From: Candidatus Micrarchaeota archaeon
GTDB taxonomy: Archaea > Micrarchaeota > Micrarchaeia > Anstonellales > Bilamarchaeaceae
Direction of reading: 5' to 3'
Length of the DNA: 64,000 bases
Assembly (NCBI GenBank): GCA_016932815.1
Contig: JAFGCC010000017.1
Coordinates: 3,581-67,580, forward strand
Shown: piece after piece, positions 2,495-50,479 of the stretch
How positions within the stretch are numbered: position 1 is the stretch's first letter
How the letters are laid out: each line of letters begins with the position of its first letter
The notes under the pieces: model-generated
What the model was told of the DNA's origin: nothing
Database searches by the model: none
Seen by the model: only the letters and a program-made list of their open reading frames with translations
Translations under genes and position numbers: made by a program

Positions 2495-2500
2495 TGGACA

Positions 2501-9514: not shown

Positions 9515-9541
9515 TGCGTTTTCAAAAAGGAAGAGGATAAT

Positions 9542-9616
9542 TGCTCCCACCGGGATTCGAACCCGGGCTACCGGAGTGAAAGTCCGGTGTCCTTGACCGG
9601 GCTAGACAATAGGAGC
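9542..9616 (-). tRNA. tRNA-Glu (anticodon UUC)
   Basis: Minus-strand sequence GCTCCTATTGTCTAGCCCGGTCAAGGACACCGGACTTTCACTCCGGTAGCCCGGGTTCGAATCCCGGTGGGAGCA folds as cloverleaf: 7-bp acceptor stem, anticodon stem CCGGA/TCCGG with loop CTTTCAC, T-arm GGTTCGAATCC. Confidence 0.85.
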
Positions 9617-9792
9617 AATAGGTAGGGATTTAGAGTGATAGCATATATAAATCTCACGCTCATAGCCGGAAGCTTTCTGGGATTTTCCGGATGGAGCCCA
9701 TCTTCCGGTTTTCGTGTTCTTCTAGCACGGCAGGCTGGCGCAGTCAGTTCGTTTTTTAACGCTAATCCGCAATATCCCTATGAGGCAGGAAA

Positions 9793-10332: not shown

Positions 10333-11034
10333 ATGATATTCATGAATGCCCACCCGTTTTCATCTTACAGCGATGCCCCAGAAGGATACAGGATACTAAA
10401 GCGAGAATGGGCCATGGTGGAAAACGTGCTAAATGCAAAAGGCAAGTTCGGCCCAGGATTAGATGAAAACGGAAACGAAACCCGCGGGGACTACCGCACA
10501 GAAGAGCGCAATGAAAAAGTGGGCATGGCAAACGAAGACGTAATCATCCTGCGCACAGACGACCCGGAAGTAAAGAAGCTCCTAGGAGAGCTCAAGAGCA
10601 AATCCGAAGAGCCGCACCTCTCAAGAGTAACCCCCGAATCCACGCTTCTCCCCAAGCTTCCCTCAAACGCAATCAAGCCCCTAGGCGAGATAGAGCATTA
10701 CGAAGAATACGAAATGGCAACGGTAGCTCCCATGAGTGCAAGGGACGTAAGAAAGGCATTCGAACACTACAACCGCGAATACAGGGAGCTAAACGGATTT
10801 AGGAAAATGGATGGGCAGCTCACAGAAATCCTAGAAAAGCGCCACTACACCCTCCAGGAGATAAGGAGGGATGGGCAAACCCACACCATGATTATCCCAA
10901 GCGAAGACGCACAGAGGAGGGAGGAACTCGACCGCGCAATGAACTCCGGGGAAGTCCCCATCGGGAAGACCTATTCAACCGAAATCCCGCAGGCCGAATC
11001 CACGGATGCGGGGAAGAAGAAGCTTCGAAGATAA
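10333..11034 (+). CDS. hypothetical protein
   Basis: 233-aa ORF, charged, no recognisable motif. Confidence 0.5.
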   Translation: MIFMNAHPFSSYSDAPEGYRILKREWAMVENVLNAKGKFGPGLDENGNETRGDYRTEERNEKVGMANEDVIILRTDDPEVKKLLGELKSKSEEPHLSRVTPESTLLPKLPSNAIKPLGEIEHYEEYEMATVAPMSARDVRKAFEHYNREYRELNGFRKMDGQLTEILEKRHYTLQEIRRDGQTHTMIIPSEDAQRREELDRAMNSGEVPIGKTYSTEIPQAESTDAGKKKLRR

Positions 11035-11110
11035 ATGCGGCACGCATCCCATTTGCGCACCCATCTCAATATAGGCAGGTTTATAAACACCTTTATACAC
11101 ATTACAACAC

Positions 11111-11893
11111 ATGAAGGAGAGAGGGCTGCATAAGAATCCACATGCTCGTAGGGCAGCCCCCGCCAAAAACCGCGGCTTCAAAAAGCCCCTCCCGCTAATT
11201 TCAAGCCTCGCAACCGGGGCGCTCCTTGCAATAATTGGCTCCCAGATGTTCTGCAAGCCCAAGGAAATCCCCCAGAACCAGCCCCCAGGGCGCCCGGTCC
11301 CCGCAATGGCGGAGAATGAGGCTCACAACAGGATAGATTACCTAAAAACCCTGATTGCGCAGAGAAAGAAAATCATGCGCTCAGGCAGCCGCAGCGCATC
11401 CGCGCAGGATGATTTCGAATCCTACAATGAAAGCCTTGCTTATATGCGTGTCCCAGAATTAAAGAGGCAGTGGAAATACTACAATATGCTAGCTAGGGCC
11501 GGAGCCTCCCCCCTCACCCCTTCGGGTAAAATTGACTGGGAAGAAGCCGGGAAGAAGGCAAGGGAAGCAGAAGAGAGGAAGAACGCTGCGGGAAGGGAAA
11601 TCGCAAGGAGAAAAGAAGCAGGGGAAAACGTCCAAACTCCGAAGGAAGAAAACACCAACCCCGACCCGGAGTGGCTAGGGGAGCTGCAAACCAAGTCCCT
11701 AGAAGAGCTCGGAGCCCTCCTAAAAGAGGAAATCGATGCAGTAACCGATGCGGCAAAATACTATTCCGATTCGGTGCGCGAAGGCGACGAAGCTGCCGCA
11801 AGCGACGCATTAACTGAATTCGAGGAAGCCTCAAGGCACATGAGGGCAATCAAGGAAGAAGGAAACAGGAAAGCCCGCAGCGATTTGCACTAA
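11111..11893 (+). CDS. membrane-anchored hypothetical protein (paralog 1 of tandem pair)
   Basis: N-terminal TM 'LPLISSLATGALLAIIGSQMF', charged low-complexity middle, helical C-term; homologous to next ORF (shared 'SxDDxQDDF' and C-terminal 'TDxxxYY...EADAL' segments); TATA-like 'gtttataaacac' about 25 nt upstream. Confidence 0.55.
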   Translation: MKERGLHKNPHARRAAPAKNRGFKKPLPLISSLATGALLAIIGSQMFCKPKEIPQNQPPGRPVPAMAENEAHNRIDYLKTLIAQRKKIMRSGSRSASAQDDFESYNESLAYMRVPELKRQWKYYNMLARAGASPLTPSGKIDWEEAGKKAREAEERKNAAGREIARRKEAGENVQTPKEENTNPDPEWLGELQTKSLEELGALLKEEIDAVTDAAKYYSDSVREGDEAAASDALTEFEEASRHMRAIKEEGNRKARSDLH

Positions 11894-11977
11894 GGCGGGG
11901 AAGAGTGCAGGCGCCGTTCCGAATAGTCCCCCTCGATACGAATTTATTGGAAATTATGTATAAACGTGGGGTTTATA

Positions 11978-12796
11978 ATGGCTATCCCACCCTATTATCA
12001 ACATATGGTGAGCCGCAGCCTGAACAAAATTCCAAGCCCCACAAGGCACAATCCCCCCGCCCAGAAGGCTAGATGGAAAAAACGGGCCGCCATGCTGGCT
12101 CCCCTCGTGGCAGCTGCGCTCGTTATCACACTTGGCAAATCCCGCTTGGGCAGCCACTCCCAGGGAATTCCCCAGGAGCCTGGGGGCAAGCGCCCCGTTC
12201 CGGGGAGTGCCGAAGGAAATCCGGATAAGGGGGAGAGGGGCAGGAAGGTGAATGCCCTGAAGTCCCTGCTAAAAACGAGGAAGCAATTGCAGGAAGCCAA
12301 AAGGCGCTTATCATCGGATGATTCCCAGGATGATTTCAAATTATGGAAGCGGGACCTGATGTTCAAGTCCCTGGAGGAACTGAACATGGAGTGGTGCCAC
12401 CAGACCTGGAGGATTCTGCACCCCCAAGAGTGCGCGCCCGGCCAATCGGATTGCGAAAATAGGGAAGAATCCGCGCAGGACCCCTGGGCAAGCAGGGAAG
12501 CAGTAGAAGAGGAGATGATAAAGAGGTGGGGCGAAGGCGAGCGGCCAGAAGAAAAGGAAAAAACAAACGAGCAGCGCAACTGGGCCGCAGCCCTAAAAGA
12601 GAGGACCGATTCCGAGATAGAATACTTCCTAGACGGAGAGCTCCGGCTGGCTTTGCGCGCAACAGACTATTACAACCTGGCAATTGAAGTGGGAAATGAA
12701 GATGCGGAAGCCGACGCACTCGGATATTCCGAAGACTCCGCATGGAGGCTAAAAGCCCTGATGCGCGAAGCAAGCGGCAGGAACCTAATCCAATAG
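11978..12796 (+). CDS. membrane-anchored hypothetical protein (paralog 2 of tandem pair)
   Basis: Track start 11966 is GTG; ATG at 11978; N-terminal TM 'MLAPLVAAALVITLG'; similar to 11111..11893. Confidence 0.55.
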   Translation: MAIPPYYQHMVSRSLNKIPSPTRHNPPAQKARWKKRAAMLAPLVAAALVITLGKSRLGSHSQGIPQEPGGKRPVPGSAEGNPDKGERGRKVNALKSLLKTRKQLQEAKRRLSSDDSQDDFKLWKRDLMFKSLEELNMEWCHQTWRILHPQECAPGQSDCENREESAQDPWASREAVEEEMIKRWGEGERPEEKEKTNEQRNWAAALKERTDSEIEYFLDGELRLALRATDYYNLAIEVGNEDAEADALGYSEDSAWRLKALMREASGRNLIQ

Positions 12797-20203: not shown

Positions 20204-21322
20204 ATGCAGCAAAAAGCGGAACTTCTGCGCAAGCCCAAAAAGGCATCTCCCCCTAAAGCGGGGTTTAATCCCGCAAGAAGGAGATTCCTCAAGGCAGCGG
20301 CAATTGCCGCAGCAGGGCTTGCCTCTGCTGCGGGTGGAGGCTGCACCTCGCTGCCGATAATCGGGGATGCGATTAGGCGCTCAAAGACGGAAAGGATATT
20401 CTTGAGGGACCTAGGCCGCCCCCGGATGCAGGAACCTCAGCAACTCCCGGACATAACAGAAGATTGCGAGCTGCTCAGGCAAAATTACAACATGCTAACT
20501 CCAAAGGAGGCATTCCAAATAGAAAGATGGCACGAGGAATGGGTGTCCCTCACAACCTTTTTGCGCCCCCTTCCTTCCCCTCCCCGGAACGGCTTGGATG
20601 ATTTGCAGCGCATCGTATTTCCCATCTGGAGGGATGAGGCAAGGGGAAGCGGCACGCTTATCACCCCAAGGCACGTTCTCACCGCAGAGCATGTGGTTGA
20701 TGAGGGGTTTTTTGACACAATTATCCAAGTTAGCCGCCATCCGGACACCGAGCAGGGGCATGGTGAATGCGCGATTAATACTGCAAGATGGCCGGAGATG
20801 GATTTGGCGCTGCTTACGCTGCCCCCAAACTCATTTAGGATGGATAGCAGGAGGGCGCTTGCGAGGTTGCATCCTGGTGGCTCCGAACCCGGCAGCCCGG
20901 TGTATGCCCTTGGGTACCCGGGCAGGGAGCGCAAGCTCCATGGGTATGACACGTCCCTGACTAGGGTGGATTGCACAACCCTCTCATATATTGAGGAAAC
21001 TTCAACACTACTCTTGGATACTATCGGGGAACGGGTATTTCTGGAAGAAAAAGCAATCTTTCGCAAATATCGCATAAGAGGCTTCATGGCCCAGAATGGC
21101 CTAAGCGGCGGCCCGGTTGCTTCCCCAGACGGAAGGATACTTGGAGTATGCACCAATAGCAATAGGGTGGAGGTAGCTGGCTCCGAACCTGATGAGCTGC
21201 TAATTGCATCCGGAACAAGTGCAATCCGCGCATTGGTTGTGGATTACCTGATAGAAAATGTTGCAGTGCCAATCATCGAGACTGCGCAGGCAATCCGGGA
21301 TAGGCTCTCCAAAACAGGATAA
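20204..21322 (+). CDS. secreted trypsin-like serine protease with twin-arginine signal
   Basis: 'RRRFLKAAAIAAAGLASAAGGGC' Tat motif plus possible lipobox Cys; 'TLITPRHVLTAEHVV' His region, 'GLSGGPV' Ser region. Confidence 0.7.
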   Translation: MQQKAELLRKPKKASPPKAGFNPARRRFLKAAAIAAAGLASAAGGGCTSLPIIGDAIRRSKTERIFLRDLGRPRMQEPQQLPDITEDCELLRQNYNMLTPKEAFQIERWHEEWVSLTTFLRPLPSPPRNGLDDLQRIVFPIWRDEARGSGTLITPRHVLTAEHVVDEGFFDTIIQVSRHPDTEQGHGECAINTARWPEMDLALLTLPPNSFRMDSRRALARLHPGGSEPGSPVYALGYPGRERKLHGYDTSLTRVDCTTLSYIEETSTLLLDTIGERVFLEEKAIFRKYRIRGFMAQNGLSGGPVASPDGRILGVCTNSNRVEVAGSEPDELLIASGTSAIRALVVDYLIENVAVPIIETAQAIRDRLSKTG

Positions 21323-21367
21323 TCCGGGATGTTCGGCAAGACCAAACGCTTGGGCAGCAGCCGGTTT

Positions 21368-22495
21368 CTAGCTGCGGGCACCCCAATTCCCAATTAGTTC
21401 CGCATAAACCCTCCCGCAGTTTAGGAGGCTGGACTTTTCCACGTATTCATCCGCAGAATGGTAGTTGCGCCCAATTGGTCCGTAGCTTGCAACGGGAAAC
21501 AGCTGCCCGAAAACGTTATCATCCGCAACCGATTTCCCCACGCAATAGGATGAAGTTCCCACTACTAATTCAACAGCCTGCTTCAATGCCCCAACCCCCG
21601 CATTCTCCGGAGGAGTATAGTGGGGCATATTGTAGGGAAGCCCGCGGTCAAAGATGGAAACGCTGCAATCCCGGTAGCGCGAGCGCAGGAAGGATTCAAG
21701 CCCACCTCTCATGCTCTCCGCGTTCTCCCCGGAAACAAGGTGCGCGTCAATTTGGAACCACGCATTCTCAGGAAGCGAAAGAGAGGTGTTCGCACCCGAA
21801 ATCTCGCGCACGAACATAGAGCCATCCCCCAGGGGCGTGCCCCTTTTAAGCGGGAATTCCCTCAACGCGAGAACAAGCTCGGACGCTTTTTCTATTGCGC
21901 TAATTCCCTGCTCCACGTGCGCACCGTGCGAGGAAATTCCGCGCACGTCCACGCGATATACCGCCCTGCCCCTTCTTCCAAGCATTATGCTTCCCTCTTG
22001 CTCCCCATGCTCAATTGGCTCAGCGGAAACCATGAACCTTATCCCCCCGAATAATTCCGGGCGGGATGAAAGAAGGTATGCCCCCGCAGAATCATTCTCC
22101 TCATCGGATGTGAGCACAACGCACACGGGTTCAGCAGTAGCTTCGATTGCGGAGAGGAATGCCGCAATCCCGCCTTTCATGTCCGATGCCCCAAGCCCGT
22201 AGAGCTTCCCATCCCTTTCGGTTAGTTCGTGCGGGTTGGAAGACCACTCCCCGTATGCGGGAACGGTATCCAGGTGCCCGAAGAATGCAAGCGAAGGGTT
22301 CTCCCCCCTGCGAGCCACTATATTCGGCCTTCCGCCCTCAAGCTCCACAACCGAAACCTCAAAGCCCAGCCTCCTCAAATGCCCTATGCAGTATTCACCC
22401 ATCGCAGATTCATTTGGGAATTCCGAAGGGATTGCGACCATGTTCCCCAGGTGTTCAATAGCATCCATGTGCAAATCACCTAAACTGCACGACAT
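21368..22495 (-). CDS. M20-family metallopeptidase (ArgE/DapE-like)
   Basis: 'FFGHLDTVP', 'SDMKGG', 'EENDSAG' motifs; true start may be the second Met (22468). Confidence 0.75.
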   Translation of the reverse strand: MSCSLGDLHMDAIEHLGNMVAIPSEFPNESAMGEYCIGHLRRLGFEVSVVELEGGRPNIVARRGENPSLAFFGHLDTVPAYGEWSSNPHELTERDGKLYGLGASDMKGGIAAFLSAIEATAEPVCVVLTSDEENDSAGAYLLSSRPELFGGIRFMVSAEPIEHGEQEGSIMLGRRGRAVYRVDVRGISSHGAHVEQGISAIEKASELVLALREFPLKRGTPLGDGSMFVREISGANTSLSLPENAWFQIDAHLVSGENAESMRGGLESFLRSRYRDCSVSIFDRGLPYNMPHYTPPENAGVGALKQAVELVVGTSSYCVGKSVADDNVFGQLFPVASYGPIGRNYHSADEYVEKSSLLNCGRVYAELIGNWGARS

Positions 22496-23525
22496 TCAGG
22501 TTTTCAAAATCTCCCTGCTCAGCAGACATCCGCTCGGATTCTAGCACGCAGTGCTTGTTTAAGCATCCCGCAATCTCCCCTCCCGCCTGTAAAAACGTGC
22601 GCGTGGGAGCCGGGTGCGCCGCACGCGCTTCCGCATACGCAATAACCCCAAGCCTTCCCAAATCCGCATCCACGTTTTCCAAGAATATGCGCGCCATTAT
22701 GCTGCATAGGTTCTTGCCCCGGTGCTCCGGGCTGGTTGCGGCTTCGCTCAATTCTATTAGGTGCACGGTTCCCGCACCTTCAACCTCTATTGCAACGTGC
22801 TCTGCTGCAAGTGCCGAAACCACCTTCCCGCTGGAACTGGACGTTGCAACCAGCACGGGCGTGCTCTCCACCATGCGTGCCACGTTCTCCTCATTTAGGC
22901 TGATTAAATACTGTGTAAATACCGAGTATAGCTCTACTAACGAAGGAACGTCCCCCATCTGTGCGCTGCGTATTGCGTAATCCCCGTTTTCCACAGGCGC
23001 ATGAAGCCCGGTTTCCGCAATCCTCCGCAAGCCCTGCTCGTGCAGGAGCACATCCTTTGGGCTAATGCGAGAAGGCTCGTTCATCGCAAGGTAGACCATC
23101 ATCATTTCGCCCGCTTCGCAGGCAAATGGGAGCACCCCCTCAACCACGTTCACATACCCATTGGCCGTTCCGCTGAAATTGCGGATAAAGGATGCAAGCT
23201 CCCTTCCTTCGCCGGATTGCTCAAGGCTCCCAAATGATGGGAGGAAAAATCGCAAGGTTGCCCTGTCCGCGCCGTTCTCCCTTGCCATCTCGCGCGCACT
23301 ATCTAATATGCCGACTAGTTCCCGCGTGCGGGTAATGAGCCTTGGGATTATCCCCTTAACCCTGCCATTGGCAGAATCCAGCCGGATTCCCGCCGCCCCT
23401 ATTGAAGGGGAGGAATTGCCTTCATGCTGCCTCCGAAATACCGCGGCGCGCCTCTGTGCGCTTGCAGGATTGCCCTCCCCGCGAATTCCAGTATTAATAT
23501 GCCTGAGGTTTCTCATTTGAATCAA
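22476..23525 (-). CDS. hypothetical protein (possible acyl-CoA N-acyltransferase-like C-terminus)
   Basis: 349-aa ORF; no firm motif. Confidence 0.4.
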   Translation of the reverse strand: MIQMRNLRHINTGIRGEGNPASAQRRAAVFRRQHEGNSSPSIGAAGIRLDSANGRVKGIIPRLITRTRELVGILDSAREMARENGADRATLRFFLPSFGSLEQSGEGRELASFIRNFSGTANGYVNVVEGVLPFACEAGEMMMVYLAMNEPSRISPKDVLLHEQGLRRIAETGLHAPVENGDYAIRSAQMGDVPSLVELYSVFTQYLISLNEENVARMVESTPVLVATSSSSGKVVSALAAEHVAIEVEGAGTVHLIELSEAATSPEHRGKNLCSIMARIFLENVDADLGRLGVIAYAEARAAHPAPTRTFLQAGGEIAGCLNKHCVLESERMSAEQGDFENLNVVQFR

Positions 23526-23591
23526 CGTATGGTTTAAAATCCTAATCGTATTATAAATAAACTAACAAAATCTAACAAAAACACGCAAGAG

Positions 23592-24245
23592 ATGTTAAAT
23601 ATGAGTATTTCCAAGACGGTAGAGGAGCTCGTAAACGAGCAGCCGCTGCTCCTATGGAGCATAGAAGCGGGAATAGCCAACTATTCGGCTGCCGCAGAAT
23701 ACCTCAAGCCTTCTGTGGAGAGGCGCACCGGGAAGAAGGTAAGCACCGAGAGCATCCTGATGGGCCTGCGCAGGATAAATCTAGTGCACGCAAGGGATGC
23801 GGGAGTGGAACTGCGCGAAATCCTCCAAAAATGCAAGTACAGCATAGAAAACAATTTCACGGACCTCGTGCTCGATTATGCCCTAGAAGACATCCCCCGG
23901 TTATCCGGGCTCCTAGAAGGCTTGGAGAGCGGGGAGAACGTTTCCATCATAACCGGGTTCAAGTACGCATCCGTGGTTACCGATTCCCCGGAGCTAATAA
24001 AACGCATTGAGGCTTCCGGAATACGGGTTGTGGGGAAAACCCAGGAGCTTGCAATATTCCGGATAAAGCTCCCAAGGGGCGCCCTGAAAGCTCCGGGCGT
24101 AATCTCGCTTTTTACTTCCGAATTCGCAAAGAAGGGCGTCAACATAATAGAGCTCGAATCCTCCTACCTTGAAATCGGCTACGTAATAAGCGAGAAGGAA
24201 ATAGGAAAAGCCCTTGAAGCCTTCAATTCGCTAAGGATTCGGTAA
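23592..24245 (+). CDS. hypothetical protein (possible ACT-like regulatory fold)
   Basis: 217-aa ORF with TATA-like 'tattataaataaa' upstream; weak resemblance only. Confidence 0.4.
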   Translation: MLNMSISKTVEELVNEQPLLLWSIEAGIANYSAAAEYLKPSVERRTGKKVSTESILMGLRRINLVHARDAGVELREILQKCKYSIENNFTDLVLDYALEDIPRLSGLLEGLESGENVSIITGFKYASVVTDSPELIKRIEASGIRVVGKTQELAIFRIKLPRGALKAPGVISLFTSEFAKKGVNIIELESSYLEIGYVISEKEIGKALEAFNSLRIR

Positions 24246-24338
24246 TTCCCCCTCAAAAGCGTCCAGTTCCCTAAGGGGGCAGGGAGAATGGCCGCAGTGC
24301 CCCCCTATTTTATCCTTTTAGGTTCCCCAACCTAACCA

Positions 24339-25517
24339 ATGAAGGCAGAGATTTCATCGGAAATCCAGCTTGCGCACCTATTGCACAATATGGGCATCCC
24401 AGCCGAAGCCGTATTGGTACTGCTGGATGGGAATCTGGTTCCCGAAACCGCAATTGCGAAAAAGGGGCAGGAAGCCGAAATCCTTTTCTACAAGCACGTC
24501 CCCCCGCTCCTTAGCCCGCAGGAGCCCTCCGGCCACTGGAAGAATGCGAAGCCATCTGTGCATTGCACGCACAAATCCCAATCCCCTTCCAAAACGGGAG
24601 GCAAAAAAGGCGCATCCCCCGCCTGCCCATCCGTTCCAGTAATCTACCTTCCATACGCAAAGGAGCATTTATGCAAAAAGCATTTCTGCGGACTATTCGA
24701 AAAAAGGGTAAAGCGCACAATCCGCAACTACTCCATGCTCAATGCGGGCGAAAAAGTGGGAATAGCGCTTTCGGGAGGAAAGGATTCGTTTGCCCTCCTC
24801 CACGCATTAAACGCGGTGCGAAAATCCCTCCCGTTTGAACTAACCGCACTCACAATAGACGAGGGAATCCCAGGCTACCGCGATGCGGCAATAGAGAACG
24901 CATCCAGAAGGTGCAGGGAGCTGGATATTGAGCAGCACGTTTTCTCGTTCAAGGAAGAATACGGGACCACGATTTCGGAAATAGGGAAAAAGGGAAAGGA
25001 AAACCTCTGCTCCTACTGCGGGGTTTTGCGCAGGAAAATCCTCAACATAAAAGCAAGGGAACTAGGAATAGGCAAGATTGCAACCGGCCACAATTTAGAC
25101 GATGTTGCGCAGACTGCCTTCCTAAACCTAATCCGCAACGAGCCCTTGCGCTTTGCAAGGTTCAACGAGCCAATCTCAAGCAGCGACAAGTTCGTGCAGA
25201 GGATTCGCCCCCTGCGCGAAATCCGCGAAAAGGAGGTTGCAGCATACGCCCTCCTCAACGGCCACAGCTACAATTCCGGCTGCTGCTGCCCGAATGCGAG
25301 AAACGCGCTCCGCTGGTCTGTGCGCCACAGCCTCAATTCGTTGGAGGATTCGTATCCGGGCACAAAGAGCAAGGTCGCTTCCAGCTTCAATTCCCTCCAG
25401 AAAATAGTGAGGGATTCTCTAAGGGGGAAAAGCGGGGAGCTGCTATTTTGCAAAGAATGCGGCGAGCCATCCTCAACTGAATTGTGCATGGCGTGCAGGA
25501 TGCTAGGCGGGCTCTAG
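24339..25517 (+). CDS. TtcA/NcsA/TtuA-family tRNA thiolation PP-loop ATPase with N-terminal ThiS/MoaD-like extension
   Basis: PP-loop 'ALSGGKDSFALL', N-terminal 'CKKHFC' and C-terminal 'CKECGEP...CMAC' Zn-finger cysteines; residues about 1-60 'IQLAHLLHNMGIPAEAVLVLLDGNLVPETAIAKKGQEAEILFYKHV' resemble ThiS beta-grasp. Confidence 0.7.
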   Translation: MKAEISSEIQLAHLLHNMGIPAEAVLVLLDGNLVPETAIAKKGQEAEILFYKHVPPLLSPQEPSGHWKNAKPSVHCTHKSQSPSKTGGKKGASPACPSVPVIYLPYAKEHLCKKHFCGLFEKRVKRTIRNYSMLNAGEKVGIALSGGKDSFALLHALNAVRKSLPFELTALTIDEGIPGYRDAAIENASRRCRELDIEQHVFSFKEEYGTTISEIGKKGKENLCSYCGVLRRKILNIKARELGIGKIATGHNLDDVAQTAFLNLIRNEPLRFARFNEPISSSDKFVQRIRPLREIREKEVAAYALLNGHSYNSGCCCPNARNALRWSVRHSLNSLEDSYPGTKSKVASSFNSLQKIVRDSLRGKSGELLFCKECGEPSSTELCMACRMLGGL

Positions 25518-25524
25518 CCCAGCA

Positions 25525-26775
25525 TCATTTGCCCTCAACCGCGCGGGTGCACACTTCCAGGTACCTGCTTATTACCCTGGGCCAGCTTAATTCATCCCTT
25601 ATCCTCTGGCGGACGTGCTCCGGTACGGATTCTTTATCCCTTATCGCCCGCTCCGCGCGTTCCGCAATCGCATAAGGGTCGCCGAACCCGTTAACGTATT
25701 CTCCAATCCCAAAATCAAGGAAAACCTCGCTAACTCCCATAGACGGGCTTATTAGCGCAGGGGTTCCGGAACTTACCGCTTCAAGCGGCACGTTCCCAAA
25801 AGTCTCAAAATGCGATGGGCTTATGACAATGCTGGCAGAGCGGTAGAACTCCGCCAATTCCGGCGTGCCCAATGGTTCTATAATGGCCCCGCCCCGCCCC
25901 CTAAGCTCCCTTATTAGCCCGTCTGCGGGGTCGTCAATCCGCGTTACCATGTGGATGCGGTGCCGGCTTCCCCGCTCTTTTAGGGCATCGGCCAGCTTAA
26001 GGAGGAAGTCCGGGTTCTTTACCGGGGTGTTCCTGCCCACAAACGCTATGGGCACGGTTTTCTCCGAAGGGCCCTTTGCAGCAAGGAATTCCGCAGGCAC
26101 TCCATTGTATATCACTTCGCTATCGGGGATTTCCCTCCCGAAAATGGACCGTGCAGTATCCCGGGCGAGTTTTGAGGGGAAGATATAGGATATCCCAGGG
26201 TCGTAGAAATCCTGTTCCATGAGCCTGAGGACAGACTGGATTTTTTCCGGGAGGTGCTTTATCTCCATGCTCAGGACGCCCGCATAGCTGAGCACTGTGG
26301 GCTTATTGTGCATTCGCGCCGCCTGGAGCAATGCCCAGGGAACAAAATAGGTTCCCCCCAGCATGACAACATCCGCATCTTTAACTATCTTTGCCATCTC
26401 CATTACCATGGGCTCAAAGCGGGATTTCACTTCATCTAGGCTTTCTACTTCCATGTAAATGTCATTGGGATTCCGCGTCTTGAGGGTTTCTAGGAGGGGC
26501 AAGGTATGCCTGGTCATCCTGCCATCTATGGACATTCCCCTTGCACTAGGGTGCGTATCAATTATGGTAAGGCGTTTTTCCCAGGAGAGGCACCTGGCCA
26601 TCTCCCTGGTCTGCCGGAGTATGCCCCCAACAAACTTGCCCCTGCCGGCTCTTTTTGCAAACTGGTTGGCTGAAGGATTAGTGTTTCCGACTATGTGCAG
26701 TTTCTTTGCCATGGGGCTGGCCATGTTTAACCAACTATCCTTTCTCACAGGCAGGGCATGCTTTAGTGCGGGCAT
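25525..26775 (-). CDS. GT4-family glycosyltransferase
   Basis: 'SHFETFGNVPLEAVSSGTPALI' motif. Confidence 0.75.
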   Translation of the reverse strand: MPALKHALPVRKDSWLNMASPMAKKLHIVGNTNPSANQFAKRAGRGKFVGGILRQTREMARCLSWEKRLTIIDTHPSARGMSIDGRMTRHTLPLLETLKTRNPNDIYMEVESLDEVKSRFEPMVMEMAKIVKDADVVMLGGTYFVPWALLQAARMHNKPTVLSYAGVLSMEIKHLPEKIQSVLRLMEQDFYDPGISYIFPSKLARDTARSIFGREIPDSEVIYNGVPAEFLAAKGPSEKTVPIAFVGRNTPVKNPDFLLKLADALKERGSRHRIHMVTRIDDPADGLIRELRGRGGAIIEPLGTPELAEFYRSASIVISPSHFETFGNVPLEAVSSGTPALISPSMGVSEVFLDFGIGEYVNGFGDPYAIAERAERAIRDKESVPEHVRQRIRDELSWPRVISRYLEVCTRAVEGK

Positions 26776-26924
26776 GGCCCGGGCCGTATTTGTTTTAATT
26801 GCAGAGGGTATTTAACCGTGAGGTGCCTCCCGCATGGCATCTCCCGGCAGGCAGGCGCGCTAAAAACCCTCCTTTGCGCAGGCTCCCAGATAGCATTAAT
26901 TACGTTTCCCGCCCATTTCCCCCC

Positions 26925-28508
26925 ATGGATTCCGTAGCCTACCCAAAGCTCGATTTTGCATGGAAGCAAACGTGCAAAGTGCTTTTCGGAGAAGAGCTTG
27001 GGGAACTAAGGGACTATGAAAAATGGCTCCTTTCCAACGTGGCATCGCCCAGGGAGGAACAATCCTCGCTCTCAGGCAGGAACGTGTATCTGGGAACGCA
27101 TGACTACTGCAAGGGCAGGTTCATCGGGTTGGGGGAAGCGGATTTCAACAAGAAATACGGGCCTCTCTCCATAAACGAAATCAAGGACATAGATTCAATC
27201 GTTTCCGCAATAAGCGAGCGCGCATTTTATGCAGGCAACATAGTGCTCGGAAACTCCAAGTTCATAGAAGGATGCGCAAACGTATTCGAGTGCCATTACG
27301 TATATGGCTCCAACAACGTAGACCACGCAAAAAACGTTGCGTATTCCTCGAATGTGAAGGAAGCCGAAAACCTGTTTGGGTGCAACACAATCGGGGAAAC
27401 GAAATTCGGGATAAAAAACTACGAAACATATAAGATAACCCGCTCGTTCGAACTCTGGAAATCATCCAACACAAGCGGCGCGTATTTCGTTTTCGGCCTG
27501 GATGGATGCTCGGACTGCATGTTCTCTTTCAATCTGCAGAACGCCTCCTACTGCATAGGCAACCTGCACCTTGGAAAGGAAAAATACGATTCCATAAAGA
27601 AAAAGCTTCTCTCCGAAATATCAGGAGAATTGAAAAAGAAGAAAACCTTCCCCTCGTTCCTGGATTTGGCAAAAGAGAGCATCCAGGATTCGGATTCACC
27701 AATCCCCGCATTCTCCCTTCCCCCCGCAAGGGAAGAGGAGACCGACAAGGAGGCAATAGAGGACGCATTCCGGAAAACAACGAAAATAGTGCTGGGCCGC
27801 GAACTCTCCAACATGGATTCGTATGCGGATTATTTCCTTTTGCACACCTGGAAAATGGACAAGGAGAACTCCTGCGTTTCCGGCAGGAAGCTATGGGTTA
27901 CGCACTATGCATCATTGGAGAGCGTTCCCAGAAACCGCCTCCTAAAGTGGGATGAGTCTTTTGAAATCGGCAGGAGGGTAAAGCTCGAAGAGGGCGAACT
28001 GGATTCCGTTTCCTCAATAGGGAAAAACCTCCACAAAATCGCCTTTTTCTGCCCGGAGCTGGAAGCGGGCGAGAACAAGAACAACATAGACACGCCCGTG
28101 CATGGAAAAAGCGTGAATTCGTACCGCAGCTCGCTTACCGGGCTTGGGAAGAACTACGTTTTCTCTTCATGGGCAAGAAGGTGCAACAACGTAATCGGGT
28201 GCACCCTCCCCTACCTCTCCGATTTCGCAATCAACACCTACTACTCCTCGCGCATCACGCGCGGGTTTGAGGTGGATGGCTCCAGAGACTGCATGGACCT
28301 CTACTTTTCGCACAACTGCGAAGCATTGCAGGAGGGGATGTTCTGCTTCAACGTGAAAAACCTTAGGAGGGCAATAGGGAACGCACAGTATTCTCAGAAT
28401 GAATACAAGAAGTTCAAGGGCGCAATCCTGGAGCAGGCCGCAGATGAACTAGAGAGAACCAAATCCCTAAAATGGGATATCTACAATATTGGATGCGCGG
28501 GAAAATAG
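26925..28508 (+). CDS. Cys-rich hypothetical protein with internally repetitive Cys/Asn-rich segments
   Basis: Track start 26799 is TTG; ATG at 26925; repeated motifs 'GCANVFECHYVYGSNNV', 'FGCNTIGETKFG', 'GCSDCMFSFNLQNASYCIGN', 'RRCNNVIGCTLPY', 'HNCEALQEGMFCFNVKN'. Confidence 0.5.
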   Translation: MDSVAYPKLDFAWKQTCKVLFGEELGELRDYEKWLLSNVASPREEQSSLSGRNVYLGTHDYCKGRFIGLGEADFNKKYGPLSINEIKDIDSIVSAISERAFYAGNIVLGNSKFIEGCANVFECHYVYGSNNVDHAKNVAYSSNVKEAENLFGCNTIGETKFGIKNYETYKITRSFELWKSSNTSGAYFVFGLDGCSDCMFSFNLQNASYCIGNLHLGKEKYDSIKKKLLSEISGELKKKKTFPSFLDLAKESIQDSDSPIPAFSLPPAREEETDKEAIEDAFRKTTKIVLGRELSNMDSYADYFLLHTWKMDKENSCVSGRKLWVTHYASLESVPRNRLLKWDESFEIGRRVKLEEGELDSVSSIGKNLHKIAFFCPELEAGENKNNIDTPVHGKSVNSYRSSLTGLGKNYVFSSWARRCNNVIGCTLPYLSDFAINTYYSSRITRGFEVDGSRDCMDLYFSHNCEALQEGMFCFNVKNLRRAIGNAQYSQNEYKKFKGAILEQAADELERTKSLKWDIYNIGCAGK

Positions 28509-28510
28509 AT

Positions 28511-29743
28511 TTATCTTCCCAGTTCCATCCGTATCCTCTTGTAGAGGTTGTCCTTGATAGTCTTCACAAGGAAGGAGTTCAGTTTCGAATCGTCCCTTTT
28601 GCGAGCCAGTTTGGTGAGTAAGAGGTACTCCTCTTTGGTATTCGCATAGATGTTCATCAGCGGAAAACCATTGTTCATTAGTACGTAATTCCAGATGAGC
28701 CTCGTTGTTCTGCTGTTCCCATCATCAAACGGGTGAATATGCTGGAATTCATTGTGCACGAATGTCGCAAATTCAACGATTTCTGCAATTCCATGGCCGC
28801 GCGAGTTGAAATCGTTTATCCTTTTGACCAGTACGTCCAGTTTGGGAAGAATCTCGGAGAAATGGGCCACTTTATACGCAAGGTTTCCGCGTATTGATAC
28901 ATCGGATGCCCTGATTCCTTCTTTTACCCCCAGGTTGTGGATTACATTCCTGTGAAGGTCCAGAATGAACTCAATGCTGAGGGGTTCGCTGATGTTGGAA
29001 ACCAGTTGGTTGATTGCATTGTAATAGTTCTTTACTTCGTTTGCTTCCCTGAGTTTTTTATCCTCTGGTACAATGTCCTCTAAAACCAGTTCCCTGGTTT
29101 CATCCAGCGTGAAGGTGTTGCCCTCAAGCTGGGTGGATGCGGAAGCGAATTCGATTCTCAGTTCCTCTTCAACATCTCCTAGCAGGAGATTGCGCTCAGT
29201 TTCTTCCACTTTTTTGAGCAGCTTTTTTATCTCTCCATAGTCCTCTTTTGCCATGCCGCCCTTACTTTCTTTTGTTCTGGGTTTCTCCCCAAAGAAGCTG
29301 AGGACTTCCTGCAGTATGGGGTCCCTTATGAATTTTATTTTCAATGGCTTTTTTGACGTTATCAGCGCCAGGTTTATGCGGTTGAGGTACGTTAGGTATT
29401 TCCTTGCTGTCTTGTAGCTTATGCCTTTGAAGTCCTTCAGGAACACTTCCTCTTTTGCCATGCCTTTTTTTAGTATCTTGGATAGCTCTACTGACAGAAA
29501 AATATTGTAATTTATCCCCCTGCCCCTACAGAATTTCATTATGTTAAAAACATTCCATGTTTTCGGGTTTTCCCTGTTTGGCTGGTATTCCCCTTTTTCT
29601 CTTTCTACTAGGCCTTCCCCTTCGAGTTCCTTCAAACGCTGGCGCGTTGATGATGGGCTTGAACCGATTTCCTCTGCAATGCGTTTGAGCTTGCTCTTTT
29701 TGAGGTTGAATAGGGCGAATAGGGCGTCCCATTTGCTTTTCAT
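28511..29743 (-). CDS. Fic/Doc-family protein with N-terminal winged-helix domain
   Basis: Fic motif variant 'HPFDDGNSRTTRLI' (canonical HPFx[DE]GNGRxxR with G->S); N-terminal 'SSPSSTRQRLKELEGEGLVEREKG' wHTH-like. Confidence 0.75.
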   Translation of the reverse strand: MKSKWDALFALFNLKKSKLKRIAEEIGSSPSSTRQRLKELEGEGLVEREKGEYQPNRENPKTWNVFNIMKFCRGRGINYNIFLSVELSKILKKGMAKEEVFLKDFKGISYKTARKYLTYLNRINLALITSKKPLKIKFIRDPILQEVLSFFGEKPRTKESKGGMAKEDYGEIKKLLKKVEETERNLLLGDVEEELRIEFASASTQLEGNTFTLDETRELVLEDIVPEDKKLREANEVKNYYNAINQLVSNISEPLSIEFILDLHRNVIHNLGVKEGIRASDVSIRGNLAYKVAHFSEILPKLDVLVKRINDFNSRGHGIAEIVEFATFVHNEFQHIHPFDDGNSRTTRLIWNYVLMNNGFPLMNIYANTKEEYLLLTKLARKRDDSKLNSFLVKTIKDNLYKRIRMELGR

Positions 29744-30846: not shown

Positions 30847-31674
30847 ATGAATAATCTTAAAGCCGCAAAACGCCCGCAAAAGGAGAAGGTTCCATCAGTA
30901 AGGGAAGCGAGGAATCTCTTTTCCAGCAGGAGGGCGGCATTGAGCAGGAATGCAGGCATTTTCAGGGGGGAATTCTCAGATAAGCTCTCCGCGCTTTCTG
31001 CATCCTCAACCATAATCGGGAGGAGGCTCACAGCGCACGGGACGAAAATCCCCCTGCGCGGGGAACTTGGCAGGAGTTCCGAATGCCCTTCGTTTTTGAG
31101 CAACGGCGAGTTGGGCACTCTCCTTGGAAGTTCAGCGGAACTCAGGGAGCGCATAGAATCCGCCAACGCAATCTCCCCCCTGGAAAAGGCCGAATTCCTA
31201 AGCGAAATCGCGGAATTTGCAGGATACGGGCAAATGTTCATAGAAGAAAGCAAAAGAAAGGAAGCGGAAACCTCAAGCGAGTGCGAATATCTTGATTCGC
31301 TTCCGAAGGAAGCCACTTCCCCCAGGTTCATCCAGAATCCGCGTGAGGCCCCCTTCTGGCCCCTCCTTCCCGCAGGGCTCATGATGGCATTTGGGCAGTT
31401 GTTCTACAACCTCCCCAAATCCGATTCGATTACCGTTGGCCTAATAGGTGCAGGCATAGGCGCATTTGCCCTTCTATGCGAGTCCGCCTACCTTTTCTGC
31501 TCTGGGAAAGTGAGGCTCATGAAGGAGCTTGAGCAAGTTCTCTTCCGCTCTGCGCTATTTGAGGCCATGAAGCAGGACGCCCTTTCGTTCCTGGAGAAGA
31601 TTGAGGGATTGCAGGGCAACCTCAATGCGGCTTTGGATATGCTGCGCGGGAGCCAAACTAACCAACAGGTGTGA
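30847..31674 (+). CDS. membrane protein, paralog 1 of tandem triplet (helical N-domain + 2 C-terminal TM helices)
   Basis: Shares architecture and motifs ('LP...FS.E...L', 'FWxxxxGxxFxxxG') with the next two ORFs. Confidence 0.55.
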   Translation: MNNLKAAKRPQKEKVPSVREARNLFSSRRAALSRNAGIFRGEFSDKLSALSASSTIIGRRLTAHGTKIPLRGELGRSSECPSFLSNGELGTLLGSSAELRERIESANAISPLEKAEFLSEIAEFAGYGQMFIEESKRKEAETSSECEYLDSLPKEATSPRFIQNPREAPFWPLLPAGLMMAFGQLFYNLPKSDSITVGLIGAGIGAFALLCESAYLFCSGKVRLMKELEQVLFRSALFEAMKQDALSFLEKIEGLQGNLNAALDMLRGSQTNQQV

Positions 31675-31677
31675 AAA

Positions 31678-32604
31678 ATGGCAGCGCTCATGAAAAGGGA
31701 AACCAAGAACCTCCCACTCCCTGGCAAGAAAACCCCGCCTAGGAAAGTGGCGGAGATTTTCTATGCGCGCAGGCAGGAGCTTAACGCGAAGGCGCACGCG
31801 CTTCCCAAGGCATTCTCAGAAGAGGTGGGCGCATTATACAATAACGCACGCAAAATGAGGCAGATGCTAAAAGAGCAGGGAATCAAAGTCCGCAGCCCCG
31901 AAGAAGTCCTAAGCTATTTCGGAACCGAGGCGCTTGTAAAGCTCGAACAAAGCGGCACAGAAATTTCCAATCCCGAAGAGGCCGCGAAATCTCTGGGGAG
32001 GGAAGCCCTCCTTAGCGCTTCGGCTTCCAATAAGCTCAATAGGAGCACCGTTCTCCAATTCGATAAGATAACCTCCCAAGAAAGGCTCGGTGAAGCAGAG
32101 AAGCTAGTCTACGGCCTTTTCCTTGCGGACCTGGTTTCGGCCCACAACTTCACTTTAGCGCATGCGGTTAAGTTCAAAGCGCAGAATGAAATCTCCGAAG
32201 AGTGCAGGAAACTCAATTCGCTTCCGCACCAAACGCGGCTCCCGCATTTTTGGGGGATGATGTTCGGGGCAGTTTCTGCCGCTTTCGCCGCTTTTGCGGC
32301 AACGTTCATGAACAAGTTCCAATTGGGGGCCTCCCTTCGCGAATCCCTCACTTCCGGGGCAGCCGTTTTTGGGGCGGTTTTAGGCGGAGGCGCGCTGGTT
32401 GCGGGAAAATTCTTCCGCACCGACAAAAAGCTCCTGCACGAGCGCCTGGGAAAGGTTTCCGGGAACCTCGAGGCCCTTAACCGGAAGTGCGATGAATCCT
32501 ATGGAATCCTGCAGTCGATGGCGCTCTTGCAGAGGAACCTGCTCCTAACAATCGGGGAACTAGGCAAGCGCAGCGCAAACAAAACCCCCCAAGCAAAAAA
32601 CTGA
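31678..32604 (+). CDS. membrane protein, paralog 2 of tandem triplet
   Basis: 'PPRKVAEIFYARRQELNAKAHALPKAFSEEVGALYNNARKMRQMLKEQGIKV' aligns with 32711 ORF 'PPRQIAKLFSERRKELGKQAQSLPKEFSAEVERLFSNSKGLRGKLKGLGTKV'; only 3 nt after paralog 1. Confidence 0.6.
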   Translation: MAALMKRETKNLPLPGKKTPPRKVAEIFYARRQELNAKAHALPKAFSEEVGALYNNARKMRQMLKEQGIKVRSPEEVLSYFGTEALVKLEQSGTEISNPEEAAKSLGREALLSASASNKLNRSTVLQFDKITSQERLGEAEKLVYGLFLADLVSAHNFTLAHAVKFKAQNEISEECRKLNSLPHQTRLPHFWGMMFGAVSAAFAAFAATFMNKFQLGASLRESLTSGAAVFGAVLGGGALVAGKFFRTDKKLLHERLGKVSGNLEALNRKCDESYGILQSMALLQRNLLLTIGELGKRSANKTPQAKN

Positions 32605-32710
32605 GGGCGGAACTTCCCGCGAATTCAGGGCTTCCGGCAATCTCCCTGCAATTAGGGGCAGGAACCCCTGTAGGATACCTTTTTATACATTCGTATCCAC
32701 AATTTATAAC

Positions 32711-33577
32711 ATGAGTTTAGTTCCGGGAATGAAACTCCAGTTGCGCGGCCTGCCCAACCAGGAGATGCCGCCCAGGCAGATTGCGAAGCTCTTCTCCGAA
32801 CGAAGGAAAGAGCTTGGCAAGCAGGCGCAGAGCCTGCCCAAAGAATTCTCGGCTGAGGTGGAGCGGCTATTTTCCAATTCAAAGGGCTTAAGGGGAAAAC
32901 TCAAGGGGCTTGGAACCAAGGTTCCCAATTCAACGCAAATCGCAGAAGTCTTCGGAAAGAAAGCCCTCCTTAGCGACGATGCCCTTGAGAACCTGGTGCT
33001 TGAATCCTCAACCCAGTGGTCAAAGGTGAAGCGGAAAGATGCCTTCTCTCCCACTCAAAAAGCAGCCCACTTAAGCAAGGTTGCAGAACTCCTTGCCGCC
33101 CATGACGTATTTCTCGCAAGCAGGATAAGGGCAGGCCTGCAAACCCGGATTGTGCAGGATTGCGAACACACGGAGTCCTTTCCAGATGAAATCAAGGCGC
33201 CAAGCATATGGGGAAAAATAAAGGGTGCCGCCCTCTTTACAATCGGATTTACTGGGGCCTTTTTAGGATTCATGTCCTTCTTCGATGTCCCGATGAGGAC
33301 GCGCGTCATCGCAACCGCAATAGCTTTTATTTCATCCGCAATAGCGGGCGCAAAAGCCGCGGCAGGCAGGTTCTCCTACGAGAAGGCGGAAATGCACTTC
33401 AAGCTGAAAAGGGTTTCCGGCAAGATTGCGGAGCTTGATGAGATGAGGGGTCACCTCGCGCTGGTTGTGGGAGCGATGAACGTCATCCAAGAAGACCTCG
33501 CTGCGGCAATTGATAAGCTTGCAAACGCACCGGAAACTTCCGGGCCCAAAATGAACAAAGGGGATTCCGAAGCTTAG
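32711..33577 (+). CDS. membrane protein, paralog 3 of tandem triplet
   Basis: As above; own TATA-like 'ctttttatacat' upstream. Confidence 0.6.
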   Translation: MSLVPGMKLQLRGLPNQEMPPRQIAKLFSERRKELGKQAQSLPKEFSAEVERLFSNSKGLRGKLKGLGTKVPNSTQIAEVFGKKALLSDDALENLVLESSTQWSKVKRKDAFSPTQKAAHLSKVAELLAAHDVFLASRIRAGLQTRIVQDCEHTESFPDEIKAPSIWGKIKGAALFTIGFTGAFLGFMSFFDVPMRTRVIATAIAFISSAIAGAKAAAGRFSYEKAEMHFKLKRVSGKIAELDEMRGHLALVVGAMNVIQEDLAAAIDKLANAPETSGPKMNKGDSEA

Positions 33578-45445: not shown

Positions 45446-46207
45446 ATGCAAAACAATAAAAAAACCCATAATCATATGTTTATCCATTGGTGGATTGGCA
45501 TGGAAGGAAAGCGAAGGTCCCGCGGTGGCGGTCAACGGAATTCCGGCTCGGTTCCGGTGAAGGTGGAAGAGGGAATCGCCTCTAAAATTCCGGAACCGGT
45601 GGAACGTTCTGAGAATGGGAAAATGGATGCCGTTCCGCAGGTTGAAACTCCTACTTATAGCATGGGCGAATTAGGTCAATATCTCGATAATGCTAAGCCT
45701 TACATCGTTACTCCTTCATATACGAATCCTCCAAGGGAGGACCTCGGTGGAGTTTCGGACTACCTAACCAAGAACTACAAAGTGCGTGTAAATCTTACCA
45801 AAGATGACATCAGCTCCGTGGAAATTCTAGACAAAACTGGGTTGATGATTACAGGTATTGGAGTTCTTGGGAAACCTGAAGAACTGACTATAATGGCTAT
45901 TGATTTCGGAGAGAACAATCCGCTAATCAAGGGGGAGGCTTTATTCTTTGCTACGCCAGAGGGGGTAAGCATGTATTTCTTCGACAAATCTACTGGTGAG
46001 TTCTCCCATGGATTAGCTAATCTATATGGGGAGGGCCTGTCCCGCGGACCCACGAAGGTAGGATTGGACATCACTAAGGAAAGCATCGCACTGCTTGTTA
46101 TCCCCGATGCTGGCAATACTGCTGCTCAAGTGGAGATAGGGTTGGTCAATAACTCTGAATATAAGATGGGATATTCATATACTGGAATCTTTGGAGTAAA
46201 TAGGTAA
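45446..46207 (+). CDS. hypothetical protein A (cassette copy 1); compositionally atypical
   Basis: 253 aa; core homologous to 49565..50428 ('AIDFGENNPLIKGEALFFATPEG' vs 'AIDLGKDNPVVQGELLVFATPQS'; '...TGIFGVNR' vs '...TAIFGLTRPP'); N-terminal 'SVPVKVEEG'. Confidence 0.6.
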   Translation: MQNNKKTHNHMFIHWWIGMEGKRRSRGGGQRNSGSVPVKVEEGIASKIPEPVERSENGKMDAVPQVETPTYSMGELGQYLDNAKPYIVTPSYTNPPREDLGGVSDYLTKNYKVRVNLTKDDISSVEILDKTGLMITGIGVLGKPEELTIMAIDFGENNPLIKGEALFFATPEGVSMYFFDKSTGEFSHGLANLYGEGLSRGPTKVGLDITKESIALLVIPDAGNTAAQVEIGLVNNSEYKMGYSYTGIFGVNR

Positions 46208-46230
46208 TATCTCTTCATGGTGTTGTTTTC

Positions 46231-50428: not shown

Positions 50429-50479
50429 CATTGCGGGTTGTTTTTAAATTTTGATTGAGAAAGTCTTTCGGGTGCATTC

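Follow-up and report, generated by a model that had tools for sequence, protein, structure and literature searches.

A beta-grasp domain derived from a ubiquitin-like sulfur carrier, without its terminal glycines, is fused to an NcsA/TtuA-type tRNA thiolase in Micrarchaeota

The partnership between a sulfur carrier of the SAMP2/TtuB type and a tRNA thiolase of the NcsA/TtuA type is known experimentally in Haloferax, Thermus and yeast. Here we describe a gene in a 64-kb stretch of Micrarchaeota DNA (contig JAFGCC010000017.1; the whole stretch of 64,000 nucleotides is called the window below) in which the two partners form a single protein. The gene occupies positions 24339..25517 on the + strand, stop codon included, and its open reading frame (ORF) encodes a 392-aa fusion of a domain derived from a ubiquitin-like protein (Ubl) and an NcsA/TtuA-type thiolase. 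In the TtuA-TtuB pair of T. thermophilus (5GHA, 5ZTB), the free iron of the cluster in TtuA is where the thiocarboxylate on the terminal Gly of TtuB binds (PMC7138817), and TtuA targets U54 in a thermophile. The Micrarchaeota protein resembles this pair in its PP-loop, its three-cysteine [4Fe-4S] site and its two zinc fingers, and its N-terminal domain (N-domain) has TtuB as its best match. It differs in that TtuB is a separate 65-aa protein, whereas here the carrier is covalently N-terminal and lacks both the Gly-Gly (GG) end and one strand.

The same enzyme family together with a ThiS-type Ubl also makes up the NcsA-SAMP2 system of H. volcanii and the eukaryotic Ncs6/Ctu1-Urm1 system, and SAMP2 is the best family match of the N-domain. 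SAMP2 and Urm1, however, are free, E1-activated, GG-ended and protein-conjugating, and the fused domain is none of these. The closest solved structures for residues 96-392 are those of M. maripaludis NcsA (MmNcsA, 6SCY) and P. horikoshii TtuA (PhTtuA, 5MKP), both of which use inorganic sulfide on the cluster to thiolate tRNA in vitro, the sulfur route that we propose here. Neither enzyme has an appended beta-grasp, and where the fused clade has CCC, at the third ligand, each of them has one cysteine. Carrier-type beta-grasp domains have been found fused to a partner enzyme or a tRNA-modification factor in MoaD-MoaE, in Ubl-E1 and in the Ubl-Cgi121 (KEOPS) protein of Thaumarchaeota (PMC2948915, PMC1779556), although the partner enzymes in those fusions are different. 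NcsA/TtuA enzymes, SAMP2/TtuB carriers, the adjacency of their genes and the fusion of Ubls to other partners are all already known. A fusion to a TtuA/NcsA-type PP-loop thiolase is not mentioned in PMC2948915 or PMC1779556, and the searchable literature yielded no account of a Ubl-NcsA/TtuA fusion or of a carrier that stays on such an enzyme without its GG. The ORF product (P0001) is identical to the NCBI protein 'TIGR00269 family protein [Candidatus Micrarchaeota archaeon]', an identity which indicates that the source is a DPANN archaeon; public records give only 'TIGR00269 family protein' and leave the extra N-terminal domain unmentioned.

Residues 1-53 (24339..24497, + strand) are a truncated beta-grasp of the SAMP2/TtuB/ThiS sulfur-carrier type, as supported by profiles, an AlphaFold model with Foldseek comparison, and synteny. 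When the N-terminus was scanned alone, a weak match to Pfam SAMP2 (PF21965) was found at residues 4-41 (E 0.0055). The N-domains of 29 fused proteins gave Pfam matches to SAMP2 (24/29, sub-threshold), Ub-Mut7C (11/29) and ThiS (9/29). A profile of these 29 domains searched against PDB sequences had only sulfur-carrier beta-grasps at the top, with P. furiosus SAMP2 (E 0.0013) followed by PF1061, Mth1743 and H. volcanii SAMP2. Searched against 1.84 billion representative proteins, the same profile retrieved, besides the fusions, about 55 small proteins (55-94 aa; E <= 1e-3 library-wide), and a Gly-Gly terminus, commonly HGG, SGG or TGG, was present in 42 of the 57 small-protein matches. Because the fused domain itself scores below threshold, its homology to carriers was shown via intermediates that pass: seven of the eight closest small proteins tested exceeded the Pfam thresholds for SAMP2 and/or ThiS. 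When a hidden Markov model (HMM) was built exclusively from those 42 GG-ended proteins, it matched residues 4-50 of the ORF with E 3.3e-11 and, in a six-frame translation of the window, nothing besides this ORF; no second free Ubl gene was found there. An initial annotation, made from the letters alone, had recognized a ThiS/MoaD-like pattern at the N-terminus; the profile and HMM searches place that pattern beyond chance, and the SAMP2 and GG-carrier scores quoted here are what a profile comparison with ThiS, MoaD and SAMP returned.

The predicted fold points the same way. In the full-length AlphaFold model, the N-domain has a predicted local distance difference test score (pLDDT) of at least 95, with strands at residues 2-4, 26-29, 32-34 and 45-49 and a helix at residues 11-17; a separate model of residues 1-62 reached a pLDDT of 86. 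Foldseek found the best PDB match of the N-domain model in TtuB (5gha_E), the carrier crystallized with TtuA, with a probability of 1.00, a template modelling (TM) score of 0.66 and a root-mean-square deviation of 1.9 A over 50 columns, followed by SAMP2, ThiS, Mth1743, TT1568 and MoaD. The domain has four strands and one helix, compared to the five strands of a canonical beta-grasp. Profiles align residues 3-49 to SAMP2 positions 17-63 with an onset consistently at SAMP2 position 16-17, and the N-terminal hairpin is therefore short of one strand. Two codons 5' of the ATG there is an in-frame TAA (24333..24335, + strand, read from the sequence), and therefore no longer N-terminus could supply that strand. 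Read-through of the upstream in-frame sequence, 'MAAVPPYFILLGSPT*P', was considered as its source and rejected, because the TAA precedes the conserved Met, because the loci of homologues show different stops upstream and no conserved sequence there, and because the sequence overlaps the TATA-like box described below. Matches of the N-domain profile to multiple stretches of the long repetitive proteins P0124-P0126 were judged to be repeat artefacts. The library-wide search also returned P0132, a protein from outside the window whose 275 aa hold four tandem Ubl-like repeats, each ending VLPKVGKNG, in a poly-Ubl architecture.

The end of the domain no longer has the form of a carrier. Alignment with unfused Ubls places the former carrier tail at residues 52-55 (K-H-V-P; 24492..24503, + strand), where the VFGG or ISGG of the unfused Ubls falls opposite K52-H53-V54-P55, and where distant members of the clade have KHGA or KHGW. 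The columns of the terminal Gly-Gly read V54-P55 in this protein and G-A or G-W in those distant members; the main clade has glycine at neither position, and another proline (P56) comes next. Among free relatives, the nearest have ...KHGG, ...AHGG or ...VHGG as their termini. From its sequence, the N-domain has lost its carrier chemistry, as E1 could neither adenylate nor thiocarboxylate it without a free C-terminal glycine, and therefore it would no longer shuttle sulfur. The domain belongs to the ThiS/SAMP2 superfamily by descent but lacks the defining feature of that superfamily, and it is not to be annotated as a sulfur carrier. The alignment of homologues contains no conserved cysteine in the N-domain, and a conserved cysteine acting as a persulfide carrier was rejected; position 21 is Cys in some members and Pro here.

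Between this tail and the enzyme lies a linker, PPLLSPQEPSGHWKNAKPSVH (residues 54-75; 24498..24563, + strand; placed by alignment), which is conserved only in the nearer part of the clade and has a mean pairwise identity of 41.5%. Residues 51-80 have a pLDDT of 85-90 in the full-length model and of 65 and 42 in the model of the N-domain by itself; the modelling hints that the linker may pack on the catalytic domain. The part homologous to unfused enzymes starts with the first zinc ligand, C76, and not at CKKHFC. The extension of about 110 residues proposed in the initial annotation is real as an extension, but it consists of 75 added residues and a separate insertion of 19 residues. This insertion, which is low in complexity and rich in Pro, Ser and Lys (residues 77-95; 24567..24623, + strand; delimited by alignment and pLDDT), splits the first zinc knuckle between C76 and C96. 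Among fused homologues it occurs only in the six closest, P0001-P0006, where its length and sequence vary, and it is the sole low-confidence stretch of the model, with pLDDT < 50 at residues 82-87.

The insertion contains the motif KTGGKKG (residues 85-91, with GG at 87-88; 24591-24611, + strand), which had been assigned to the linker. The motif is indeed present, but it sits in the zinc-knuckle loop, about 30 residues past the end of the beta-grasp, and is unique to this protein among its homologues. It was rejected as a processing site, being neither conserved nor outside the zinc knuckle. Two functions had been suggested for this di-glycine, and neither is supported. Sulfur delivery in cis is disfavored by the lack of conservation of GG87-88, by V54-P55 in the carrier-GG columns and by the lack of a conserved cysteine; proteolytic release would have to take place in a variable, low-confidence loop between zinc ligands, where there is no plausible cleavage site. 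The unfused Micrarchaeota NcsA proteins P0081, P0082, P0087 and P0094 likewise have insertions in the first zinc knuckle.

Gene order around ncsA indicates where the N-domain came from. The order enolase - ncsA - metallo-beta-lactamase - ValRS - TPR/AAA - amidohydrolase - CBS - ScpA/B is common to the window and to loci L002, L016 and L017, all with the fusion, and to L008, which is unfused. In L008, a separate 62-aa ThiS-family gene that ends VFGG (MLLILDDKKKKMDFKGTASQLLKKLKIRREEVVIKINDKLAPETTEVNGKDKVEIIKVVFGG) lies between enolase and ncsA, and its stop codon abuts the ncsA ATG. This separate gene is absent between enolase and ncsA in the fused loci, and the fused N-domain occupies its exact position. 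A Ubl ORF lies directly 5' of ncsA in four of the six distinct unfused loci examined, and is found there in L012 (Ca. Ainarchaeum) and L015 (Nanoarchaeia). The fused gene thus resembles the unfused DPANN pairs of L008, L012 and L015 in having the same genes in the same order, with L008 also sharing the surrounding synteny; unlike them, it is one gene with a truncated, GG-less Ubl in place of two genes with a full-length, GG-ended Ubl. A ThiS-family/PP-loop gene neighbourhood in archaea was noted by Makarova & Koonin 2010 (PMC2948915). As read from these arrangements, the N-domain originated by fusion of neighbouring genes.

A sister lineage preserves what looks like an intermediate state. Its locus L006 (GCA_030628865.1) contains at 5844-6023 a separate 59-aa ORF, MIIKIRKSGEINEILEQLNICADEVVVKINNKIKPETEKVKKGEVLEISYIKHGAFNEV, which is of the short form, lacks the GG, ends ...KHGAFNEV and overlaps ncsA by about 11 nt in another frame. 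A second, divergent free copy of 59 aa, P0127, ends ...KHGAFNEM, again without Gly-Gly, and because this divergent copy exists the L006 ORF is taken as a real gene and not an error. A programmed frameshift joining the 59-aa ORF to ncsA in L006 was rejected, as the site is unlike known shift sites and P0127 supports two real genes. No Pfam match was found for the L006 59-aa protein or for P0127, and neither is likely to carry a Ubl annotation. On the simplest reading of these sequences, the history would begin with an adjacent full-length GG-carrier, pass through a truncated, GG-less but separate partner, and end with an in-frame fusion; the last step may also have run in reverse, as a fission in the sister lineage.

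The fusion is not confined to the window. A search for it in relatives, as the initial annotation had envisaged, found 40 distinct proteins of 367-409 aa, down to about 43% identity, in NCBI, JGI, ENA and Logan assemblies; a single-protein scan of a genome collection gave 3 fused species representatives. Metagenome-assembled genomes with the fusion include GCA_018812715.1, GCA_040753215.1 and GCA_046538155.1. In a neighbour-joining tree of the catalytic part alone, all 40 fusion proteins fall in one clade with the unfused P0042 as its sister, and the catalytic domains within this clade have diverged to about 45% identity. Among 38 full-length fused proteins, residues 1-53 share a mean pairwise identity of 56% and the enzyme part one of 64%, and nine N-domain columns are invariant in the 29-sequence alignment (M1, L15, G19, G31, P35, E36, T37, K52 and H53). 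Because of this similar level of identity, the nine invariant columns and the confident predicted fold, the N-domain is judged to be retained under selection and still functional.

Translation very probably starts at 24339, since all 40 homologues share the same start Met, conservation runs from residue 1 on, stops lie upstream and no internal start codon is conserved among homologues. In homologous loci, in-frame stops are found 10-12 codons upstream with no conservation of the upstream sequence, and such stops occur in three lineages of the fusion. Residues 19-131 contain no Met codon at all, and the sole in-frame GTG before C76 (V74) is not conserved. These data favor the start of the full fusion ORF over the downstream start that the initial annotation had kept as an alternative. 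An A/T-rich, TATA-like element, ctattttatcctttta (24305..24320, + strand, read from the sequence), is centred about 29 nt 5' of the ATG, and comparable A/T-rich boxes are located 22-36 nt 5' of the start in L002 and L004. By known archaeal promoter geometry, the element would act as a promoter, and its position suggests a leaderless or near-leaderless mRNA.

The remainder of the protein, residues 76-392, has by sequence everything expected of a complete TtuA/NcsA-type PP-loop, [4Fe-4S] tRNA 2-thiouridine synthetase, in agreement with the C-terminal PP-loop thiolase of the initial annotation. The PP-loop ATP-pyrophosphatase core (residues 139-312; 24753..25274, + strand) is delimited by invariant columns and by Pfam ATP_bind_3 (PF01171), which matches residues 140-311 with E 7.6e-16, and its SGGKDS motif (residues 145-150; 24771-24788, + strand) is invariant in 58 homologues. 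The TIGR00269 C-terminal model scored 75 bits, above its cutoff of 62.75. With phmmer, residues 96-390 matched PhTtuA (E 1.6e-49) and MmNcsA (E 1.7e-45) with SGGKDS and the cluster cysteines aligned, and the sequence from C96 onward aligns with PhTtuA starting at its residue 6-9. The full-length AlphaFold model, built with 58 homologues, has a mean pLDDT of 90.2 and a predicted TM score of 0.90, the latter dominated by the large domain. The best Foldseek match of the full model was PhTtuA 5MKP (E 1.4e-21, target-normalised TM 0.87), and the next were MmNcsA 6SCY and then T. thermophilus TtuA 5GHA and 5ZTB. On either side of the core are an N-terminal zinc finger (residues 76-115, with C76, C96, C112 and H115 in invariant or nearly invariant columns; 24564..24683, + strand), to which Pfam TtuA_LIM_N gives a sub-threshold match at residues 100-117, and a C-terminal zinc ribbon (residues 371-386, with C371, C374, C383 and C386 invariant in the 58 homologues; 25449..25496, + strand), to which Pfam zn-ribbon_14 gives a sub-threshold match at residues 370-392.

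The predicted cluster site consists of C224 and C227 in CSYCG (25008-25019, + strand) and of C317, the predicted third [4Fe-4S] ligand in the C-C-C of residues 315-317 (25281..25289, + strand; from the alignment). These three cysteines are invariant in the 58 homologues; CSYCG aligns with CSYCG of PhTtuA and CSFCG of MmNcsA, and C317 with the CP cysteine of both. In MmNcsA the cluster ligands are Cys142, Cys145 and Cys233 only, and the fourth iron has an exogenous ligand, probably hydrosulfide (PMC10067955). The fused protein likewise has, as far as its sequence tells, the three cysteines (CxxC and a distal C) that would hold a [4Fe-4S] cluster and leave one iron free. The additional cysteines C315 and C316 are characteristic of the fused clade: the CCCP motif is present in 35 of 40 fused proteins and in none of 77 unfused relatives, CCP occurs in seven of those 77, including the sister with the GG-less split Ubl, and three fused proteins have a single Cys at the third-ligand position. 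CCCP may be a co-adaptation of the sulfur-handling site. As to the target, the enzyme is probably an NcsA that makes 2-thiouridine at position 34 (s2U34) of tRNA Glu, Gln and Lys; this follows from phyletic reasoning, as the profile scores do not decide between U34 and U54. Separately, the sole tRNA gene and sole Rfam match in the window is a tRNA-Glu(UUC) gene at 9541-9617 on the - strand, one of the U34 tRNAs that NcsA-type enzymes thiolate.

We favor, with moderate confidence, the reading that the former carrier is kept as a permanent and probably docked module of an enzyme that is fed sulfur by another route, most likely as sulfide on the cluster. If the enzyme works like characterized members of its family, the PP-loop (SGGKDS) would use ATP to adenylate C2 of the target uridine, the [4Fe-4S] cluster on C224, C227 and C317 would bind a sulfur species at its free iron, and the cluster-bound sulfur would displace the adenylate. 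The sulfur would arrive independently of E1, and hydrosulfide bound directly to the cluster is its most likely form because there is no usable carrier and because there is in vitro precedent for both MmNcsA and TtuA. MmNcsA is active with Na2S, ATP and Mg (PMC10067955), and TtuA is active with sulfide without TtuB, the free iron being the binding site of the TtuB C-terminus (PMC7138817, PMC11323500). The N-domain would probably dock at or near the old binding site of the free carrier with its invariant Lys52-His53 tail pointing toward the active-site channel, and it may stabilize or gate the oxygen-labile cluster and the active site.

Several points weigh against this reading. The Pfam SAMP2 score of the window protein, 19.3 bits, is below the gathering threshold of 27. 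NcsA and Pyrococcus-type TtuA are the best NCBIfam models for the ORF, yet both equivalogs fall far below cutoff (203 bits versus 500 and 192 versus 450, respectively). The KH-V-P tail, if placed in the active site with the chain continuing past it, might obstruct the tRNA, and docking may differ from that of TtuB. A bolder proposal is that the former carrier has become a component of the catalytic apparatus, and that its Lys52-His53 tail, lying in the channel through which the thiocarboxylate of a carrier normally gets to the free iron, and the clade-specific CCC motif together provide a removable fourth cluster ligand or gate, or a new internal relay for persulfide or hydrosulfide, which we regard as conceivable but doubtful.

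Other explanations of the retained domain were weighed against the same data. TGS is the beta-grasp of ThrRS, RelA/SpoT and Obg-family proteins, and a TGS-like module could help the enzyme to bind or select tRNA instead of contacting the active site. The host enzyme acts on tRNA, one family member matched Pfam TGS, RelA TGS regions appeared weakly in the PDB profile search (E ~0.75-0.9), and TGS structures were at ranks 11, 18, 41 and 42 when folds were compared; in both sequence and structure, however, the best matches are all sulfur carriers, synteny traces the domain to the gene of the cognate carrier, NcsA/TtuA enzymes that are not fused bind tRNA with no module of this kind and the N-domain is not notably basic, all of which makes this explanation rather unlikely. 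It is less likely still, and in our view quite improbable, that the domain is a selectively neutral relic left by a chance read-through fusion. It clearly can no longer do the chemistry of a carrier, and DPANN genomes are reduced and prone to such losses, but the domain is kept in 40 of 40 clade members despite the catalytic divergence to about 45% identity. Its identity of 56% against 64% for the enzyme, its invariant K52-H53, P35-E36-T37, G19 and G31 and its very confident fold also speak against a relic, as does the sister lineage, where the copy without GG survives as an intact separate gene, in two divergent versions. The fused domain might instead act as a built-in negative regulator, mimicking SAMPylation or TtuB conjugation so that the enzyme is gated or inhibited until a signal comes. 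H. volcanii NcsA (HVO_0580) is SAMPylated by SAMP2 (PMC2948915), and T. thermophilus TtuA is modified by TtuB (PMC11323500); a linear N-terminal fusion nevertheless differs geometrically from an isopeptide bond on active-site lysines, and no releasing signal or enzyme is evident. We consider such a regulator unlikely, and it overlaps with, and is here inseparable from, the gating version of our favored reading.

Two further accounts would change what the protein is. In one, the fusion is a cleavable precursor, from which a JAMM-type or other protease frees the carrier, which is then thiocarboxylated for sulfur delivery. JAB-mediated release was suggested for fused ThiS/MoaD by Iyer et al. 2006 (PMC1779556), and an internal GG (residues 87-88) is present here. 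That GG, however, is shared by no homologue and has a zinc ligand on either side, so that cleavage there would strip C76 from the enzyme; the carrier-GG columns read V-P, G-A or G-W, with no glycine in the main clade and a proline next; and the free-standing copy of the sister lineage lacks the GG as well. The 57 other window ORFs of at least 90 aa, which were scanned up to 58066 save for five unscanned ones (94-189 aa, 58.3-63.6 kb), yielded no ThiF/E1, rhodanese, cysteine desulfurase or MPN/JAMM domain; the JAMM protease gene that the initial annotation had looked to was not among these ORFs, although a search of a 64-kb window says little on the whole genome. Taken together, these data leave a cleavable precursor very improbable. 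In the other account, the fusion is an artefact of a mis-called start, of a sequencing error that deleted a stop or of a chimeric assembly, and the source is indeed a metagenome-assembled contig. The same architecture in 40 distinct sequences from NCBI, JGI, ENA and Logan, with the same Met throughout, in-frame stops upstream and no Met codon between residues 19 and 131, makes an artefact hardly credible.

The surroundings of the fused gene differ from those of its syntenic relatives. Relative to L002, L008 and L017, additional genes are inserted to either side of ncsA in the window, at 20204-24245 and 25525-29743. The upstream insertion holds a trypsin-like protease, an M20 peptidase, a GNAT-like acetyltransferase and a 217-aa unknown protein, and the downstream insertion a GT4 glycosyltransferase, a 569-aa unknown protein and a Fic-domain protein. 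In the fused-clade relative L016, an RFC small-subunit gene at 247-2535 carries an intein (PF14890), and an IS605 OrfB/Cas12f-like TnpB gene at 11115-11708 lies directly 3' of the fused ncsA. Elsewhere in the window, long ORFs without a Pfam match (E <= 1e-4) occur in runs at 1949-5790, 10333-12796, 30847-33577 and 45446-52186; examples are 3226-5790 (854 aa), 46231-47883 (550 aa), 47969-49468 (499 aa) and 50480-52186 (568 aa). The region 58727-60045 (about 1.3 kb) has no ORF of at least 90 aa, no tRNA and no Rfam match at gathering level.

The fusion is a 'Rosetta stone' that independently confirms the partnership of carrier and thiolase. It also offers a clean example of a ubiquitin-like sulfur carrier that has lost its reactive end and yet stays under selection, now as a non-catalytic, permanently attached subunit, and the order of events, from GG-carrier to GG-less split gene to fusion, is legible from its relatives. 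This raises the question of what the body of a carrier does on its enzyme besides deliver sulfur, with cluster protection and active-site gating as examples. The finding bears on how sulfur is supplied for tRNA thiolation in genome-reduced DPANN archaea; if the relay or gate formed by the Lys52-His53 tail and the CCC motif were real, it would mean that a genome-reduced archaeon thiolates its tRNA without any E1-carrier pathway.

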